Part shown: positions 6,369 through 15,240 of the stretch, piece after piece | Layout: every line of letters starts with the position of its first letter | Position numbering within the stretch: position 1 is the stretch's first letter | From: a virus | Lineage: Duplodnaviria; Heunggongvirae; Uroviricota; Caudoviricetes | IMG/VR virus record: IMGVR_UViG_2740892028_000002 | DNA length: 17,526 nucleotides | Reading direction: 5' to 3' (one strand) | Translations under genes and position numbers: made by a program | Notes under the pieces: generated by a model | Database searches by the model: none | Seen by the model: only the letters and a program-made list of their open reading frames with translations | Told to the model about the DNA's origin: nothing

Positions 6369-6508
6369 ACGTCCTCCTTTTCCTGCGGTAGTGGTAACAC
6401 CCCTGTTGGTGTTCTTTCACACCGGAGACACCATCGATTCCAGTAAGGTTGATTTGGTCGGAAGCGGTTATCTTCTTTGCATTCACCGCACCGATAACAT
6501 CGCATCAT
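6335..6508 (-). CDS. ninD: NinD-like Cys-rich small protein
   Basis: Within track ORF 6335..6568; likely start at the tandem Met ([30 protein letters not shown]...) overlapping the NinB stop; zinc-ribbon-like CxxC pairs. Confidence 0.55.
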
Positions 6509-6945
6509 GCTGCCCGGTCTCCCCATCGCGATTTCCACTCCAGAGCCAGTCGCGCTTCGTCTGACCACTTAACGCCACGTTCTGTACCGAATGCCTGTAT
6601 AAGCTCTAATAGCTCCGCAAATTCGCTTACACGCATCCTGCTGGTTGACTGGCCTATTACCACAAAGCCATTCCCGGCAAGGTTAGGAACAACATCCTGC
6701 TGCTTTAATGCTGCGGTAAACACACACTTCCAGCTTTCTGCATCCAGCCAGCGACCATGCCATTCAACCTGACGAGAGACGTCACCAAGGCAAGCCCAAA
6801 GCTTTCGGTTTTGGTCTAAGCTGCGGTTGCGTTCCTGAATGGTTACTACGATTGGTTTGGTTGGGTCTGGAAGGATTTGCTGGATAGCTTGAATGGCGTT
6901 CTGCTGATGGATGGGACTTCTTAGTTCAAACGTTAGTTTCCTCAT
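6505..6945 (-). CDS. ninB: NinB recombination mediator
   Basis: 146-aa translation [56 protein letters not shown]... near identical to lambda NinB. Confidence 0.9.
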
Positions 6946-7180
6946 TGCTCACCTTCTGCACGCATGGATTAATTAACGCCAAAATAGCTTCTGGTTTCTC
7001 AATAACATCGAACCGCTCACCACTTGCCATTCTTACAATCGTAATCCCGGCCTCAAATAGGGTTTCGATGTTGTCAGAGTTAACGTACAAGGGCTCATAT
7101 GCACTTCTGGTGCTTTCTATCACGCCTGTGCTTGGTGGCTGATAGATGCTGCATTGCATGGTTAATTTTATAAATGGCAT
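6926..7180 (-). CDS. hypothetical protein
   Basis: 84-aa ORF with AAGGAG 7 nt upstream of ATG; 20-nt overlap with NinB start. Confidence 0.5.
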   Translation of the reverse strand: MPFIKLTMQCSIYQPPSTGVIESTRSAYEPLYVNSDNIETLFEAGITIVRMASGERFDVIEKPEAILALINPCVQKVSNEETNV

Positions 7181-7184
7181 ATAC

Positions 7185-7436
7185 TCACTCCTTCACTTTG
7201 ATTCCAGCGGCGCGGATGGCGTCAGCGCAATAATCGATAGCGCAGTTGTGTCCTTTGTCGAAATCATCCTCAGCCATCACTTTGTCATCGAGTTTTATCT
7301 CGATAGCTGCGCGAGACTTAACCCATGACTGCCAGGCAATCATCTTGATGGCCTGAACGTGAAGTTCTTCGCTGTTGTTAATAGACTCGAACTCTTCACC
7401 AAACCACTCCAAAAACTGCTTTCTTGATTCGTCCAT
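7185..7436 (-). CDS. hypothetical protein
   Basis: Track ORF 7185..7565 trimmed to the internal ATG at 7436, which has GAGGA 5 nt upstream and sits just after the stop of the upstream gene. Confidence 0.45.
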   Translation of the reverse strand: MDESRKQFLEWFGEEFESINNSEELHVQAIKMIAWQSWVKSRAAIEIKLDDKVMAEDDFDKGHNCAIDYCADAIRAAGIKVKE

Positions 7437-7447
7437 ATCAATCCTCG

Positions 7448-7648
7448 TTATGACAGGTTGATTTTCACCCAACCCTTCCCACGCACATTTGCAACAAGCC
7501 CTTTCTTTCTCAGGTATTGCATACGGCGATCGATGGTTTCGATATACATTCCATTGCTCCGCCATTTAAGCCAGATATCAAAAACAGGTGTTGGTCTTTC
7601 ACTCAGCATTGAAAGAATGTTTTGATCTAATTTTTCGTACTTGCTCAC
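7448..7648 (-). CDS. small basic protein, possible winged-helix DNA binder
   Basis: 66-aa ORF, basic C-terminal half (RRMQYLRKKGLVANVRGKGW); ATGA overlap with upstream membrane-protein gene. Confidence 0.45.
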   Translation of the reverse strand: MSKYEKLDQNILSMLSERPTPVFDIWLKWRSNGMYIETIDRRMQYLRKKGLVANVRGKGWVKINLS

Positions 7649-7971
7649 AAATACCCTCTCTCACTTAATCGCGCCCACGCTTCGTTAAACTCTTCTCGGG
7701 TTGCGCCGGATTTTCTTTCTTCAAACATCATGCATTCGCTGATGTCTCCCCATGACTTTGGTCGCTTTTCAGCGAACAGATCATCCCATTCGAATACCCA
7801 GCGGCCTGATTTTCGGTAGTGGTAAATGGTCAGCCATGTTGTGCTGTTCGCTGGATACCCATAGAGAACTTCGACTTTTTGATCACGGTCTTTATGCTTT
7901 TTCAGCAGGATAAAGCCAGCAACCAGCGAAGCTCCGGCAAGAATGATGATTGGAATTTGCCAGTCAGCCAC
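7645..7971 (-). CDS. small membrane protein
   Basis: 108-aa ORF with one N-terminal hydrophobic helix (IPIIILAGASLVAGFILL); GTG start with GAGGGA upstream; first gene after the helicase terminator. Confidence 0.5.
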   Translation of the reverse strand: MADWQIPIIILAGASLVAGFILLKKHKDRDQKVEVLYGYPANSTTWLTIYHYRKSGRWVFEWDDLFAEKRPKSWGDISECMMFEERKSGATREEFNEAWARLSERGYL

Positions 7972-7986
7972 ACTTCCCTCTCCCCC

Positions 7987-8018
7987 AAATAAAAAGGCCT
8001 GCGATTACCAGCAGGCCT
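7987..8018 (-). terminator. intrinsic terminator downstream of helicase
   Basis: Minus-strand AGGCCUGC-loop-GCAGGCCU perfect 8-bp stem followed by UUUUUAUUU. Confidence 0.6.
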
Positions 8019-8043
8019 GTTATTAGCTCAGTGATGTAGATGG

Positions 8044-9420
8044 TCATACGTCAGCCCCTTGTGCATATCGTCTGCCACGCGCAGCAGGTGCATTTGATGC
8101 TGTGCAAATCTGTCTGGCTTCATCCTGGTCACATGCAACAAAGTGTCCGTTACAGAACCGCTGGTAAACCGTACCAAGCGAGCCAAAACGGTTTTTCGTC
8201 ACAATGATTTCAGCAAATGGTGCGGCGCTACTGTTCTCGTCATATACTGCTTCCCGATAGAGCATGATGATTGAGTCTGCGTCCTGTTCAATGCTTCCTG
8301 AATCACGCAAATCTGCGTTTGTCGGGCGTTTGTTTGGTCGCTTCTCAACATCGCGCGAAAGCTGACTCAGGGAGATAACAGGCGTTTTCAGGTCTTTCGC
8401 CATCGCCTTAAGGCTTCCTGAGATGTGAGCAATTGCGAGGTCGTTGCGGTCTGCTTTCGGCTTCTCAATCAGGCCAAGATAATCCGCCATGATGAGTGAC
8501 AGGTTTGGATTTTCCTGTTTGTGCCGTTCTGCGATTGAGCGTATTTCTTCGACCGATAACCGCGAGGCATCGACTACCCATACATCCAAATCTGCAAGCT
8601 GACTCATGCCGTTAGCAACACGTGCCCAGCCCTCGTCATCCATCGATGCAGGATTTCGCAGCACGCTAACCGACATCCTCCCGGCGTTGGCAATACTTCG
8701 CTCTGCAATCTGCAATGCGCTCATTTCCATCGAGAAAATCAACACTCCGCGCCGGACGTCAGAACCAGGAATAACGCGACTTGCAACGCCTTCGGCAATC
8801 TTCAGCGCCAGTTCGGTTTTCCCCATACCAGGACGAGCAGCGATTATCACCAGGTCTTCCGCGTTCATCCCTCCGGTGATGGCATCAAGTTCTTCGATTC
8901 CGGTCTTCAGGGTATCTGACTCTTCTCCGTTCCTCAGACGCCTGTCAAGCGTGTCAGTGTAGTCAGTAATGATTTCCCCTAACCGTACAGGTTTAACCTC
9001 GTCACGGGGCTTTCTGATGGCTGAGAGCCGTTTTACAAGTTCATCCATCGCCTGACTTGATGCGTCGATGGTTCCGCTCTGAATTGGTTCACGCATTTCA
9101 TCCATGATTTCCAGCACCAGACGGCGGTGATAGTTATCCGCGACCATTCCGGCATATCCCTTCAGGTTTGCGGCACTCGGGCAGTTTTTGCTGGTCATCA
9201 GGATTGACGTGAAATGCTCCTCTCCGCACGCCTCGGCAACCATCAGCGCGTCGATTAGGTTTCTGTTTCGCGCCTGTTTGCGGATAACCTCGAAGGCTTT
9301 CCGGTAGAGCGGAATTGAAAACGCTTCCGGCTCAAGCGTTGCCAGAACGTCACTGGCAGTTGGTGTTAATCCACCAATCAGCAGGCCACCGATAACGCTC
9401 GCTTCGATATCCTGTCTCAT
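8044..9420 (-). CDS. replicative DNA helicase, DnaB family (P22 gene 12-like)
   Basis: 458-aa ORF; Walker [16 protein letters not shown], DnaB-like N-terminal domain and C-terminal RecA-fold motifs; ATGA overlap with O-like gene. Confidence 0.9.
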
Positions 9421-10366: not shown

Positions 10367-10639
10367 CTACCTGCCTTGACGAAAGACCTTAAGAACATCG
10401 TTAAACTGACTTACGGATATGTCTTCTTTGAGAAGCTTTTCCAGAAATGCGTTTGGAATGAACGTATATCCCTCCTCTTTTGGTAGAGACGGGAGCAACG
10501 CCCTCGCCTCAGCCTTCAGAAGCTCAGTTCTGGCAACTTTCACAAAAGAGATTTGAGTTCTTTCATCAATGGAACGAAGGAAGCGCAAACGCTTAGCTTC
10601 TTTGTGTGTATCAGGTGGATTAAAGCCTTTGTTTCGCAT
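10367..10639 (-). CDS. hypothetical protein between cII and replication genes
   Basis: 90-aa ORF; GAGGT 7 nt upstream of ATG; stop 2 nt before the O-like start. Confidence 0.5.
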   Translation of the reverse strand: MRNKGFNPPDTHKEAKRLRFLRSIDERTQISFVKVARTELLKAEARALLPSLPKEEGYTFIPNAFLEKLLKEDISVSQFNDVLKVFRQGR

Positions 10640-11373: not shown

Positions 11374-12081
11374 ATGGTTCAGAATGAAAAAGTGCGCAAA
11401 GAATTCGCCCAGCGGCTAGCGCAAGCCTGTAAAGAAGCTGGTCTTGATGAACATGGTAGGGGGATGGCCATAGCCCGTGCCCTTTCTCTTTCGTCCAAAG
11501 GCGTTAGCAAATGGTTTAATGCTGAGTCTTTACCGCGTCAGGAAAAAATGAATGCGCTTGCGAAATTTCTAAACGTTGATGTTGTTTGGCTTCAGCACGG
11601 CACTTCGTTAAATGGAGCGAATGATGAAGATACTCTTTCATTTGTTGGCAAATTAAAAAAAGGGTTAGTGCGCGTGGTTGGTGAGGCAATTCTTGGTGTT
11701 GATGGTGCCATCGAGATGACCGAAGAGCGCGATGGGTGGCTCAAAATTTATAGCGATGATCCTGATGCCTTTGGTCTTCGTGTGAAAGGAGACAGCATGT
11801 GGCCCAGAATAAAATCAGGAGAATATGTACTCATTGAGCCTAACACCAAAGTATTCCCGGGTGATGAGGTGTTTGTCAGAACCATCGAAGGACACAACAT
11901 GATCAAGATTCTTGGCTATGACAGAGATGGAGAATACCAATTTACAAGCATCAACCAGGACCACAGACCAATAACGTTGCCTTATCATCAAGTAGCAAAG
12001 GTGGAGTATGTGGCTGGTATTCTGAAGCAATCTCGCCATCTGGATGACATCGAGGCAAGGGAGTGGCTGAGAAATTATTAA
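11374..12081 (+). CDS. cI: CI repressor, HTH plus S24 LexA-like autopeptidase domain
   Basis: 235-aa ORF; N-terminal HTH, C-terminal GDSM (catalytic Ser) motif; no SD and -10 immediately upstream, consistent with leaderless translation. Confidence 0.9.
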   Translation: MVQNEKVRKEFAQRLAQACKEAGLDEHGRGMAIARALSLSSKGVSKWFNAESLPRQEKMNALAKFLNVDVVWLQHGTSLNGANDEDTLSFVGKLKKGLVRVVGEAILGVDGAIEMTEERDGWLKIYSDDPDAFGLRVKGDSMWPRIKSGEYVLIEPNTKVFPGDEVFVRTIEGHNMIKILGYDRDGEYQFTSINQDHRPITLPYHQVAKVEYVAGILKQSRHLDDIEAREWLRNY

Positions 12082-12205
12082 TACCAATAGCATAGAGACG
12101 AAAATGCGACAGGTTTTAGGTACAAATCATAACCCTATCCACAAACAACGTTGTAAATATACACATAAGACTATTGTAAAAAAAGCTCTATCCCAGTAAA
12201 TGCGG

Positions 12206-12234
12206 TTGCAAAATGGGTTGATCGAGCATATATA
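12206..12234 (+). promoter_or_regulatory. candidate sigma70 promoter for cI-downstream cassette
   Basis: TTGCAA (12206..12211), 17-bp spacer, TATATA (12229..12234); caveat: AAGGAG SD of the downstream GTG overlaps the -10. Confidence 0.35.
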
Positions 12235-12247
12235 AGGAGTATAGTTA

Positions 12248-12610
12248 GTGACCCAAGATGAAACGAATGAATATCTGAAAACCTTAGCATTGGTTCCAAG
12301 TGCAGAGGCCTCCGCAGAGGAGAAGCAGATATATAGCGTCAAAAAGGCTGTAATCGGTCTGATTGAATTTGTTACAACCAGTCTTGAAGAGCTTGGAATT
12401 GAAGGGTTGCATGAGTTAACAAACCCATCTCTTGACGAATTAGATGCAGAGCTAGAGAAACTTGACCAAAAAGCTGATGCAATCAATGAACTAAACTTAA
12501 AGCAAATCATCATATTTGCACAGATTTTAATCAAAAACATAAGAGAAAAGAATCCTGATTTGTGCTCTGAGGGATCAAAACTACTCAAGAGTGCTAAATC
12601 GGGTCTTTGA
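12248..12610 (+). CDS. hypothetical acidic protein in rexAB-equivalent position
   Basis: 120-aa ORF, GTG start with AAGGAG 8 nt upstream; visibly AT-rich relative to flanks; predicted helical and acidic. Confidence 0.5.
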   Translation: MTQDETNEYLKTLALVPSAEASAEEKQIYSVKKAVIGLIEFVTTSLEELGIEGLHELTNPSLDELDAELEKLDQKADAINELNLKQIIIFAQILIKNIREKNPDLCSEGSKLLKSAKSGL

Positions 12611-12633
12611 CACTTACAGAGCGGAGGATAAAC

Positions 12634-12756
12634 ATGTCTAGAACTGAACATATCAAAGATATGCTTAAAAGTGCGGATCGAATCAATCAGATTATTGCTG
12701 AAATGAAGCAGAGAAAAGCAGAAATGCTAGCATCAAAGCTTCCAATGGCAGCATAA
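12634..12756 (+). CDS. 40-aa small basic protein
   Basis: MSRTEHIKDMLKSADRINQIIAEMKQRKAEMLASKLPMAA; GGAGG 7 nt upstream of ATG; terminator immediately downstream; below the ORF-track cutoff. Confidence 0.4.
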   Translation: MSRTEHIKDMLKSADRINQIIAEMKQRKAEMLASKLPMAA

Positions 12757-12763
12757 CCAAAAA

Positions 12764-12787
12764 CACCCGCTTCGGCGGGTTTTCTTA
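12764..12787 (+). terminator. intrinsic terminator ending the cI-side cassette
   Basis: ACCCGC-TTCG-GCGGGT perfect 6-bp stem with tetraloop followed by TTTCTT. Confidence 0.7.
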
Positions 12788-13169: not shown

Positions 13170-13288
13170 AAACAGATACCAAACGAGATGGGTTTGGCGG
13201 TGATGTGAATTGCAGCTGCAACGACAGCAACCAGAAGATCAGCACCTGGCGCATCACCACCAAAGCCATTTCACATGAGGAAAACATC

Positions 13289-13597
13289 ATGACGGTAATC
13301 GTGTACGGAAAATCAACATTTGCAGGAAATGCCAAAACTCGCCGTCATGAGCGGCGCAGAAAGCTGGCTATCGAGCGTGATTCCATCTGCAACATCATCG
13401 ATTCGATCTTCGGCACAGACAGTGAGGAAGCTGTTCAGGAAGAACCGAGAAAGCGTTTAAGTCTTTCTGAAAAAGCAATATCACTCGGCATCATCAGTAA
13501 ATCAAATACAGATGCGAATGGCGGAAGCGTTTGTTTGCCTGAAGTTGCACTGTATGCTGCTGGTTACAGGTCAATGAAATCAATTACGGCGAGATAG
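13289..13597 (+). CDS. N: N-type antitermination protein (P22 gene 24-like)
   Basis: Arginine-rich motif GNAKTRRHERRRKLAIER near N-terminus; start taken at MTVIVYGK (GAGG upstream), since the track ORF start at 13205 is an in-frame 5' extension. Confidence 0.8.
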   Translation: MTVIVYGKSTFAGNAKTRRHERRRKLAIERDSICNIIDSIFGTDSEEAVQEEPRKRLSLSEKAISLGIISKSNTDANGGSVCLPEVALYAAGYRSMKSITAR

Positions 13598-13999: not shown

Positions 14000-14086
14000 A
14001 TGGAAGAAGAATTTGAAGAGTTCGAAGAGCATCCTCAGGATGTGATGGAACAATACCAGGACTATCCGTATGACTACGACTATTGA
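14000..14086 (+). CDS. possible 28-aa highly acidic peptide
   Basis: MEEEFEEFEEHPQDVMEQYQDYPYDYDY; GAGGTGA SD just upstream; overlaps the start of the next ORF out of frame. Confidence 0.3.
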   Translation: MEEEFEEFEEHPQDVMEQYQDYPYDYDY

Positions 14087-14270
14087 TACAAATCAATGGT
14101 GTGGACAATTCAAGCGATGTAATGGATGCAAGCTGCAATCGGAATGCATGGTTAAGCCTGAAGAAATGTTTCCTGTAATGGAGGATGGGAAATATGTCGA
14201 TAAATGGGCAGTACGAACGACGGCAATGATTGCCAGAGAACTTGGTAAACAGAATAACAAGGCTGCCTGA
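14070..14270 (+). CDS. hypothetical small Cys-containing protein
   Basis: 66-aa ORF with CGQFKRCNGCKLQSEC; weak SD; terminator overlaps its stop. Confidence 0.4.
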   Translation: MTTTIDTNQWCGQFKRCNGCKLQSECMVKPEEMFPVMEDGKYVDKWAVRTTAMIARELGKQNNKAA

Positions 14271-14794: not shown

Positions 14795-14889
14795 GCACTG
14801 TGTATTCATTCCAACGAGTGAATACACGGAGCAATGTCGCTCGTAACTAAACAGGAGCCGACTTGTTCTGATTATTGGAAATCTTCTTT

Positions 14890-14916
14890 GCCCTCCAGTG
14901 TGAGGGCGATTTTTTT
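14890..14916 (+). terminator. intrinsic terminator within pL operon
   Basis: GCCCTC-CAGTGT-GAGGGC perfect 6-bp stem followed by G-A-TTTTTTT; 12 nt upstream of the next gene start. Confidence 0.6.
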
Positions 14917-14928
14917 GACGGAGGAAAT

Positions 14929-15240
14929 ATGAAATTACGTGTCTGGCATATCCCGCAAGTACCTATGAAACCGTTCATTGTAGAAGTGGCAAGTGTTGAA
15001 GAGGGTGTTCGCCTGATGGATGCACTGGCTGATTATGACGCCTTTCAGTATGACAACAACATCAAGCCTGACTACTGCAATGCTAACGGCCTTGAGATGT
15101 GGGATGAGAGTCTTACCGATGAAGATTTATCAGAGATGGGGCTTACGGATCGCTGGGTGGATTGGTACAGCGAATGCCAATGTTACGACGACCCACGTAA
15201 ATATCTCGAAAGCCTGAAAGAAGAAACATCAGCCGCCTAA
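14929..15240 (+). CDS. hypothetical acidic protein
   Basis: Start chosen at MKLRVWHIPQV (GGAGG 5 nt upstream); the track start at 14875 would place a terminator inside the CDS. Confidence 0.5.
   Translation: MKLRVWHIPQVPMKPFIVEVASVEEGVRLMDALADYDAFQYDNNIKPDYCNANGLEMWDESLTDEDLSEMGLTDRWVDWYSECQCYDDPRKYLESLKEETSAA

Follow-up and report, generated by a model that had tools for sequence, protein, structure and literature searches.

The locus and its operon

The window examined here, a 17,526-nucleotide stretch of DNA from a virus of the Caudoviricetes, carries on its minus strand a gene for a DnaB-type replicative helicase (8044..9420; Pfam DnaB_C, E 9.5e-78; DnaB N-terminal domain, E 4.5e-13; phrog_19, E 8.7e-136), a terminator hairpin, four small genes that we refer to as g1 to g4, and ninB/orf, which encodes a recombination mediator and is the next conserved nin gene (6505..6945; Pfam NinB, E 2.3e-54). 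The helicase gene is the final gene of the replication module, and all of the features in question, from the helicase to ninB, are read in the same minus-strand direction. An earlier note on this DNA had described a perfect 8-bp-stem terminator after the helicase and, behind it, an accessory cluster that runs into ninB; both are present on the minus strand.

Pfam and PHROG searches of the window give the order Cro, CII, O-like protein, DnaB, NinB, NinI-like phosphatase and Q on the minus strand, with CI (11374-12081) and an N-like antiterminator (13205-13597; phrog_271, E 7e-40) on the plus strand. Directly after cro, nutR signals can be read from the sequence, namely boxA CGCTCTTTA and a boxB-like hairpin. 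The cluster thus has the placement expected of a lambdoid pR operon, in which co-oriented genes run from the replication genes through the cluster to ninB and on to Q. A 174-aa antisense ORF (12651..12127) was considered as an additional gene and set aside; its translation is of low complexity and it is probably spurious.

The GC content of the cluster (42-48%) is slightly under that of the helicase gene and near that of the other nin genes, and the cluster therefore carries no clear foreign-gene signature. A scan for sigma-70-like promoters returned no site in 6400-8400, where 2.3 were expected; this is a weak test, because it relies on a crude consensus scan alone. Rfam and repeat scans of the cluster returned the terminator hairpin only.

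The terminator and the boundary sequence

The hairpin (7985..8018, minus strand; stem 8018..7995, T-run to ~7985) begins 25 nt past the helicase stop codon. Its perfect 8-bp stem, AGGCCTGC / GCAGGCCT, has six GC pairs, closes an 8-nt loop and is followed by TTTTTATTT; the same terminator is found in lambda and in the annotation of phage Sf6. Terminator-like patterns in general are not rare in this DNA (3 against 2.1 expected from shuffles), and the fold of the 66-nt hairpin region has a z-score of only -1.5. The hairpin sits within a longer stretch (7972..8047, minus strand) that comprises tR2 together with the next gene's ribosome-binding site and is a conserved boundary sequence of lambdoid phages. 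This stretch matches both the lambda ren-ninB interval and the Sf6 boundary sequence 'bsq6' at 75 of 76 nt, and in the Sf6 record it is annotated as a tR2 homolog. Judged by this sequence identity, the hairpin is the lambda tR2 terminator, an element that is already well known. Read-through confined to induction, which the earlier note had proposed to check, is the classical N-antitermination property of tR2.

A 27-codon ORF spans the terminator (7964..8047, minus strand). It corresponds to gene 45 of Sf6, annotated there as NinA-like, and its ATG start overlaps the helicase stop as ATGA; in lambda, the same 27-codon ORF joins ren to ninB.

Architecture, relatives and dispensability

Behind the hairpin follow g1 (108 aa), g2 (66 aa), g3 (83 aa), g4 (84 aa) and then ninB. 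The earlier note had counted two 84-aa genes at the end of this series; that length holds for g4, and g3 is one residue shorter. The genes are closely packed: g1 runs into g2 at GTGA, a 4-nt overlap; 11 nt that include GAGGA lie between g2 and g3; the spacing from g3 to g4 is 4 nt, and AAGGAG is located within the 3' end of g3; and g4 overlaps ninB by 20 nt. Such tight stop/start packing of the ATGA type is generic in nin regions (PMC8022706). All four ORFs match existing phage protein families in a PHROG profile search (E 1e-25 to 1e-75), of which only that of g4 bears a functional name, NCBIfam and PADLOC returned no real match for any of them, and in the literature on phiTE_015, on FlbD in prophages and on anti-defence in nin regions we found nothing about g1 to g4.

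Relative to Sf6 genes 45-49, the cluster shows 97.6% identity across 83% of its length, and 6900-8050 is 100% identical to E. coli PEC408. How fixed is this arrangement? Across 80 IMG/VR loci with g1, the gene always lies between the replication module and ninB, yet the replication modules are of three types and the spacings from g1 to ninB take 28 different values. Of these 80 loci, 48 contain g2, 32 have g1 but lack g2, and 2 contain g4. Among 5426 E. coli genomes, just 2 contain at least 80% of the cluster, whereas 2031 contain parts of it. In other prophages, the same slot contains Lar or HNH genes, with Lar replacing g4. In E. coli E2, a single prophage carries P-ren, g1-g2, a phiTE_015-family gene (another allele of g3) and ninB.

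Deletions that remove the orthologs have been isolated in Sf6. Isolate 3-7 (deletion 30436-34441) lost genes 46-56 and isolate 7-3 (deletion 30641-34635) lost genes 46-54; both are viable, both lyse faster, and the terminator was kept in each (PMC5630979). More generally, nin genes are non-essential, and everything beyond cro needs N antitermination (PMC10695390). This dispensability pertains to rich laboratory culture and has no bearing on natural hosts.

g1, a conserved domain with a predicted membrane anchor

g1 (7645..7971, minus strand; gene 46 of Sf6) starts with GTG behind a GAGGGA Shine-Dalgarno sequence. Its product has a single hydrophobic membrane helix predicted at the N terminus (residues ~5-27), in agreement with its earlier description as a single-pass membrane protein, and a conserved domain of ~75 aa for which no known fold was matched. 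An exhaustive profile search collected 36 representatives of 73-133 aa, barring one weak match of 380 aa (E 2.6e-5), and no informative fusions were present among them. The core of the domain contains 15 residues that are invariant from lambdoid phages through jumbo phages. The membrane helix is absent from the homologs in virulent phages, namely Goslar, the 112-kb KookSpook and the group IME207, HC8A and seszw; to judge from these sequences, a membrane anchor is not a feature of the whole g1 family.

The gene neighborhoods of these homologs raise the alternative that g1 is a replication-linked accessory factor that binds the helicase, the replisome or another component of DNA metabolism, and that the lambdoid form tethers this partner to the inner membrane. 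For example, in the siphoviruses IME207, HC8A and seszw, an 87-aa g1 homolog has a divergent primase gene on one side and, on the other, the gene for an ATP-dependent helicase, to which it is start/stop coupled, and in a 148-kb phage-like contig, a g1 homolog is found amid HNH genes and follows a gene for a family A DNA polymerase at a distance of 1.7 kb. In lambdoid phages g1 opens the series of genes that follows the helicase or P-ren, and 15 invariant core residues are what one would expect of a binding surface. However, this support is limited to gene neighborhood, and homology to a helicase loader or another replication protein, which the earlier note had named as a finding that would speak against its own proposal, was not detected in Pfam, PHROGs, NCBIfam or the PDB. 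Moreover, lambdoid g1 is found combined with replication modules of three kinds, from which a recombination boundary separates it; its position in these phages is dictated by operon order; the Goslar homolog adjoins PhuZ and not replication genes; and Sf6 replicates without gene 46. We therefore consider a replication role for g1 to be doubtful.

g2 and the question of a g1-g2 unit

g2 (7448..7648, minus strand; GTG start; gene 47 of Sf6) matches phrog_7185 (E 1e-34). It had been described as a basic, possibly DNA-binding 66-aa protein, a description that is borne out by a pI of 10.2, a net charge of +6.5 and an AlphaFold2 model (pLDDT 91.5) with helices at 3-14, 22-32 and 36-48 and strands at 52-55 and 59-62. 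The best Foldseek matches of this helix-helix-helix-strand-strand model are the winged-helix domains of CymR, IclR, BirA and GntR (TM ~0.75); for CymR and IclR, the probability is 1.0 and the TM-score 0.75, but the E-value is only 6e-3. With its three-helix bundle and beta-hairpin wing, g2 as modelled is a stand-alone winged helix-turn-helix protein. A search of 6850-8100 for operator-like repeats found none.

Do g1 and g2 form a unit? The earlier note had proposed that the membrane protein and its small regulator constitute a superinfection-exclusion or abortive-infection unit standing in the place of ren. The predicted anchor of g1 and the basic, winged-helix character of g2 are in keeping with such a unit, as are the coupling of the two genes through GTGA and the fact that in all 49 close loci (>=95% identity) g1 is immediately followed by g2. 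Early single-pass membrane proteins are, furthermore, capable of excluding superinfecting phage, with T4 Imm and Sp as examples. Against the proposal, the 32 of 80 IMG/VR loci with g1 but no g2 show the pair to be separable from one side, and from the other side, g2 homologs of 65-67% identity are found in Enterobacter prophages behind Ren-like tandem winged-helix proteins, without g1. In virulent phages, the g1 homologs both lack the anchor and occur alone. No PADLOC match goes beyond a chance-level hit for g2 (E 0.028), and no PHROG exclusion family was matched. There is also no promoter-like site within the cluster, which lies behind tR2 in an N-dependent transcript; the coupling of the genes is of the sort generic to nin genes (PMC8022706); and a recognised sie gene is already present in the left operon of the window (14875-15240). 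As to the place of ren, the claim that lambda carries this gene in the position of the cluster did not hold up: tR2 has ren on its upstream side and the cluster on its downstream side, and ren and the cluster coexist in E. coli E2. Taken together, we regard an exclusion or abortive-infection unit as very unlikely.

The viability of the Sf6 deletions indicates that there is no addiction to these genes. A toxin-antitoxin pair, with g1 as toxin and g2 as antidote, was likewise considered and rejected, because 32 of 80 loci have g1 on its own and because removal or truncation of Sf6 genes 46-47 leaves the phage viable. At the same time, given the adjacency in 49 of 49 close loci, g1 and g2 may be functionally linked inside this close lineage, as far as gene order can indicate.

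Two further comparisons concern the affinity of g2 and its neighbors with Ren. Comparison of the g2 profile with the Ren-like upstream protein of the Enterobacter prophages found no homology, and with lambda Ren itself hhalign gave a probability of 0.15%, g2 matching phrog_7185 only. By blastp, none of g1 to g4 gave a significant match to Ren, the results being short chance matches for g1 and none for g2 to g4. Membership of g1 to g4 in the Ren family (phrog_142) was accordingly rejected, as there is no sequence homology and the cluster and Ren lie on opposite sides of tR2.

g3, a cassette-shuffled gene

g3 (7185..7436, minus strand) encodes an acidic protein of the phiTE_015 family (phrog_343, E 1.1e-25; RefSeq name of the identical protein). 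A Pfam search found no match for g3, although PF26207 is present in a 55%-identical homolog (precomputed data), and a sequence search of the PDB returned nothing meaningful. The diversity of this gene is the most interesting side result of our analysis. In 48 loci whose g1 and g2 are ~99% identical, g3 has 31 protein alleles, which resolve into 8 x 8 cassettes in 16 combinations; the allele in the window combines N-half cassette N0 with C-half cassette C0. Five four-combination sets show recombination, with the halves exchanged at three conserved anchors, of which the terminal ones coincide with ribosome-binding and start signals. In other words, by comparison of its alleles, g3 is a cassette-shuffled, hypervariable gene.

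Such variability suggests an alternative for the cluster, in which at least one of the four genes serves counter-defence or host takeover during lytic growth. g3 would be the likeliest candidate, because the exchange of its halves among phages resembles an arms race, against a background of near-identical g1 and g2. The same slot holds Lar, a restriction-alleviation gene, in place of g4 elsewhere, Ren lies just upstream, and the occurrence of g1 relatives in virulent phages would fit a lytic-cycle function. On the other hand, none of the proteins is homologous to a known anti-defence protein in our searches, which were run without a dedicated anti-defence library, and cassette shuffling can also arise from neutral mosaicism at conserved linkers. 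A counter-defence or takeover gene in the cluster is thus a possibility to be taken seriously, if an unlikely one. A more elaborate version, in which g1, g2 and g3 together form an early host-interaction module (serving counter-defence, or exclusion in the lytic cycle) with g1 and g2 near-invariant and g3 setting the specificity, seems to us quite improbable.

g4, a borderline FlbD/SwrD relative

g4 (6926..7180, minus strand) encodes an acidic protein that corresponds to gene 60 of HK022, with 100% identity, and to gene 49 of Sf6, with 92%; it matches phrog_8458 (E 5e-40), a family labelled 'flagellar protein'. A sequence search of the PDB returned nothing meaningful. In Pfam, g4 reaches PF06289 with 25.5 bits, against a gathering cutoff of 24.7 (E 9.7e-6; profile positions 2-57 of 59), and the same family is assigned to g4 homologs in precomputed data. 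On this profile evidence, we class g4 as a borderline member of the FlbD/SwrD family.

A model for the cluster

What, then, is this stretch of DNA? With high confidence, we interpret it as the beginning of the nin region in a lambdoid E. coli prophage of the P22/Sf6 type, holding four separately exchangeable, non-essential delayed-early genes that do not make up one functional unit. To call these genes independent and accessory is to describe their architecture and evolution and not their mechanism. The 76-nt boundary sequence common to lambdoid phages would be the site at which modules are exchanged. In the lysogen, pR would be repressed and g1 to g4 silent, as their operon position and the crude promoter scan suggest; silence in the lysogen is likewise what should follow from the placement of the cluster in the N-dependent delayed-early transcript. 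Upon induction or infection, by analogy with lambda, polymerase from pR would be modified by N at nutR, pass tR1 and tR2 and continue through g1 to g4, ninB and the remaining nin genes to Q, and g1 to g4 would be translated as a chain by way of overlapping or close stop/start signals, like all nin genes.

As for the individual products, our suggestions are tentative. g1 could hold at the inner membrane a conserved cytoplasmic domain with a binding function, whose counterparts in other phages are soluble. g2 might bind nucleic acid by its modelled winged helix. g3 could be a protein of two modules that are exchanged among phages, as would suit a protein whose binding partner varies. Finally, g4 could be a small FlbD/SwrD-like protein, perhaps with the ability to assemble into rings. 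Acting together, the four products would adjust lytic growth, or the interaction with the host, when natural hosts are infected.

Much of this is already known: tR2 is an established terminator, the genes were entered in the Sf6 record when it was annotated, and RefSeq contains the exact sequence. The cluster as it was first described therefore matters little, the four small phage proteins are widespread, and present evidence does not point to a new kind of system. Three observations may serve as starting points for experiments. The g1 domain has been kept from lambdoid prophages to a jumbo phage, often beside helicase genes; the phiTE_015 family displays a clear two-cassette shuffling; and an FlbD/SwrD-like protein occurs in phages of a host without FlbD.

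Comparison with known systems

The FlbD/SwrD family consists of small proteins of flagellar operons in Bacillota, Actinomycetota and spirochaetes that form hexameric rings, with Asn15, Ile19, Glu23 and Pro26-Asp27-Thr28 (B. subtilis SwrD numbering) as conserved residues, and is reportedly absent from Escherichia (PMC13232269). Mapped by a profile offset of 19, g4 appears to keep the ring-holding residues of SwrD, namely N-x-x-x-I (N34, I38) and E39, as well as T47, and has F at position 42, which would correspond to Glu23, with E43 adjacent. By the same mapping, the surface Pro-Asp-Thr would be G-I-T in g4, with G45-I46 replacing Pro-Asp. g4 further differs in an additional N-terminus of 20 residues and in its location in a phage early operon beside ninB instead of a flagellar operon.

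Lambda Ren is, like the products of the cluster, a small accessory protein beside replication genes, and it resembles g2 in that it appears to be a winged-helix protein (weak HTH_Crp_2 and MarR_2 matches; phrog_1687); the g2 homologs of Enterobacter prophages are, in addition, coupled to Ren-like tandem proteins. With the lambda nin region as a whole, the cluster shares its place in the pR operon, the overlapping stop/start chain, non-essentiality and the tR2 boundary sequence, including a ribosome-binding site that belongs to ninB in lambda and to g1 in this prophage. In contrast, tR2 leads directly to ninB in lambda, whereas four genes intervene in this prophage, which has no ren upstream of the terminator as lambda does. 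The cluster shares its slot with P22 ninA, which is flanked by helicase gene 12 and ninB in a P22-like genome (PMC8022706; SPN9CC annotation); here, the NinA-like label is limited to the 27-codon ORF and comes from the Sf6 record.

In Sf6 itself (NC_005344 / AF547987), the gene upstream encodes a different type of helicase (31% identical) and g3 is represented by another allele of the same family, 35% identical to gp48. Order and orientation are otherwise the same, with protein identities of 99% for g1, 98% for g2 and 92% for g4; the terminator and the 27-codon ORF are identical, and ninB comes next with the same 20-nt overlap.

Organization and expression of the cluster

On the minus strand of the window, a DnaB-type helicase gene (9420..8044; DnaB_C E 9.5e-78) is followed after 25 nt by a hairpin (8018..7995) with a perfect 8-bp stem (AGGCCTGC, an 8-nt loop, GCAGGCCT, then TTTTTATTT), and then by four small genes, which we call g1 (7971..7645, GTG start, 108 aa), g2 (7648..7448, GTG start, 66 aa), g3 (7436..7185, 83 aa) and g4 (7180..6926, 84 aa), that run into ninB (6945..6505). 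The junctions are tight: GTGA is common to the g1 end and the g2 start, an 11-nt gap containing GAGGA separates g2 from g3, the g3–g4 gap is 4 nt and AAGGAG falls within the 3' end of g3, and g4 overlaps ninB by 20 nt. These coordinates confirm the arrangement described in the earlier note, a helicase, a terminator and four linked small genes leading into ninB, with two corrections: all features lie on the minus strand, and of the two proteins given there as 84 aa, g4 has that length and g3 does not. Because nin regions in general show tight ATGA-type packing (PMC8022706), the packing is no evidence for g1–g4 as a unit.

The window contains a complete lambdoid early region with CI, Cro, CII, an O-like initiator, the helicase, NinB, a NinI-like phosphatase and Q; the other strand carries N, Ral (restriction alleviation; left operon, 14070-14270, +, phrog_1055), a recognised superinfection-exclusion gene, sie (left operon, 14875-15240, +, phrog_1510), CIII, RecT and Gam. 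Downstream of cro are a boxA (CGCTCTTTA) and a boxB-like hairpin. A 90-aa ORF between cII and the O-like initiator gene (10367-10639, −) falls in phrog_2519 and has no match in Pfam. What, then, drives the cluster? A scan of 6400-8400 for sigma-70-like promoters returned none, versus 2.3 expected from shuffles. In lambda, every gene past cro requires N antitermination, and nin genes belong to the non-essential, delayed-early class (PMC10695390); given position and sequence identity, this should apply to g1–g4 too. In a lysogen these genes would be silent, and N-modified polymerase alone would read past the hairpin, the counterpart of lambda terminator tR2, into g1–g4. A more plausible site of lysogen-expressed function is the lambda rexAB position, where two small ORFs lie 3' of cI in the same orientation as cI (12248-12780, +): one of 120 aa (12248-12610, +; weak match to phrog_16322) and one of 49 aa (12607-12756, +; no match found), both followed by a GC-rich bidirectional terminator (12765-12780). 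A 174-aa antisense ORF at 12651..12127 appears spurious.

The four proteins

The g1 family is small, with 58 clusters in a word-based search; an exhaustive search through 1.84 billion representatives yielded only 36, of 73–133 aa save one weak 380-aa match, and no informative fusions. Its members combine a variable N-terminal hydrophobic helix, whose flanking charges mostly fit an N-out/C-in topology, with a strongly conserved ~75-aa domain (YGYP..WLTxYHxR..FEWDDLF..RP). Relatives occur in virulent phages, namely Goslar, KookSpook and the siphoviruses IME207, HC8A, C1 and seszw (genes of all but C1 at L142 2462-2725, L145 and L146 2962-3225, L144 2953-3273 and L141 2438-2740 of our comparison loci), and the helix is missing in every virulent-phage homolog in the alignment, which comprised all but C1. 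In other words, the proposal that g1 is a single-pass membrane protein stands for its N-terminal helix but does not extend to the family, whose core is accordingly a soluble cytoplasmic domain, with a lineage-specific anchor. In IME207, HC8A and seszw, the g1-family gene lies between a divergent primase gene and an ATP-dependent helicase gene, to which it is start/stop coupled; this neighbourhood provides a weak lead towards replication.

As the earlier note has it, g2 is basic (pI 10.2) and may bind DNA; it is predicted to form a canonical winged helix (pLDDT 91.5), whose nearest structures are the winged-helix domains of CymR, IclR, BirA and GntR (TM ~0.75, probability 1.0, E 6e-3). No sequence homology between g2 and Ren was found. 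The g4 protein narrowly passes the Pfam FlbD threshold (25.5 versus 24.7 bits) and is identical to an HK022 protein; with 12 records, it is rare in phages. SwrD/FlbD proteins form hexameric rings and are absent from Escherichia (2026 preprint, PMC13232269). Judging by profile offset, g4 appears to keep the ring-forming N-x-x-x-I motif and to lack the surface Pro-Asp-Thr motif. An FlbD-like g4 homolog (35% identity), ORF17 of Klebsiella phage vB_Kpn_RAH1 (L143 2501-2725), is annotated 'exclusion protein ren', apparently for its position after P; blastp of g4 against lambda Ren gave no similarity.

The g3 protein belongs to phrog_343, and RefSeq names an identical protein "phiTE_015 family". Across 48 IMG/VR loci (from L003-L082) with ~99% DNA identity in g1 and g2, the gene that follows g2 encodes 31 protein alleles, built from 8 N-terminal and 8 C-terminal cassettes (exchangeable halves, 30–65% identical among themselves) joined at conserved anchors, of which there are three: an initial MDESRK, a central WQASRAAIE and a terminal AAGIKVKE, whose codons contain the ribosome-binding site (AAGGAG) for the gene that follows. 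Sixteen cassette combinations were seen, and five sets in which two N and two C cassettes occur in all four combinations show recombination at the middle anchor. Such shuffling could reflect the mosaicism usual in lambdoid phages, with exchange at short conserved linkers, or a variable partner could be driving the diversification; that g1–g2–g3 form an early host-interaction module with specificity set by g3 is, in our estimation, unlikely.

Gene pairing and the exclusion proposal

All 80 IMG/VR loci encoding g1 that we fetched and scored for neighbours place it between a replication module and ninB; the module is of three types (the window's helicase, a 31%-identical helicase, or neither). 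Of these loci, 48 have g2 behind g1, 32 have g1 on its own and 2 contain g4; the g1-to-ninB distance takes 28 different values. Conversely, g1 lies directly upstream of g2 in 49 of 49 g2 loci, all at least 95% identical and thus representing one recent module only. The pairing does not persist at greater evolutionary distance: in Enterobacter prophages, g2 homologs of 65–67% identity have no g1 beside them, and in a 148-kb phage-like contig a g1 homolog of 43% identity, located near a gene for a family A DNA polymerase, lacks g2. The Enterobacter homologs of g2 show start/stop coupling to proteins of 150 or 222 aa that consist of two or three Ren-like winged-helix repeats in tandem (phrog_142, E 6e-11 and 3e-21; L132 3552-4192 and L134 3336-4192); lambda Ren itself gives weak winged-helix matches. 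At least 80% of the four-gene arrangement is found in 2 of 5426 complete E. coli genomes, and parts of it in 2031. In other E. coli prophages, the g4 slot is taken by a gene for Lar (restriction alleviation) that overlaps ninB, or an HNH endonuclease gene separates g1 from the helicase gene (L138 1320-1502; L140 2227-2838), which marks the slot as a hot spot for small accessory genes.

Could g1 and g2 nevertheless form a superinfection-exclusion or abortive-infection unit, as had been proposed? Early membrane proteins can exclude a superinfecting phage during lytic growth. However, g1 and g2 are separable, g1 has anchor-less relatives in virulent phages, the promoter scan was empty and a recognised sie gene lies elsewhere in the window. 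Among PADLOC models the sole match to g1–g4 was a chance-level one to g2 (E 0.028), and none of the four matched a PHROG family annotated as exclusion. Moreover, experimental evolution of Shigella phage Sf6 yielded viable, faster-lysing isolates with deletions 30436-34441 and 30641-34635, which remove genes 46–56 and 46–54 and retain the terminator (PMC5630979); lytic growth thus does not require the g1–g4 orthologs, and losing them is not toxic. On these grounds we consider the proposal unsupported and an exclusion or abortive-infection role very unlikely.

Comparison with known systems

A 1151-nt stretch of the window recurs with 100% identity in a prophage of E. coli PEC408, a strain that the whole window matches over only 73%; to Sf6 the stretch is 97.6% identical over 83% of its length. 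As in the window, the Sf6 record places genes 46, 47, 48 (a different g3 allele) and 49 between a DnaB-like helicase gene and ninB, and it labels the hairpin, within boundary sequence bsq6, "terminator; homology to phage lambda; tR2". In direct alignment, 75 of 76 bases of window 8047..7972 equal the lambda ren–ninB intergenic region. The match takes in the ribosome-binding stretch GGGGGAGAGGGAAGT, used by ninB in lambda and by g1 in the window. The hairpin lies inside a conserved 27-codon ORF (7964-8047, −; Sf6 gene 45, NinA-like), whose start codon shares the sequence ATGA with the helicase stop and whose stop overlaps the g1 start; lambda has the same ORF as a link between ren and ninB. Should this ORF be translated, termination could be affected by ribosomes passing over the hairpin. 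The earlier placement of lambda ren in the cluster's position is not accurate: lambda ren precedes tR2, consistent with E. coli E2, where the order O, P, ren, g1, g2, a different g3 allele, ninB means that ren and the cluster coexist, with ren upstream. The feature is real but ordinary: lambda tR2 followed by previously annotated, non-essential, mosaic nin-region genes.
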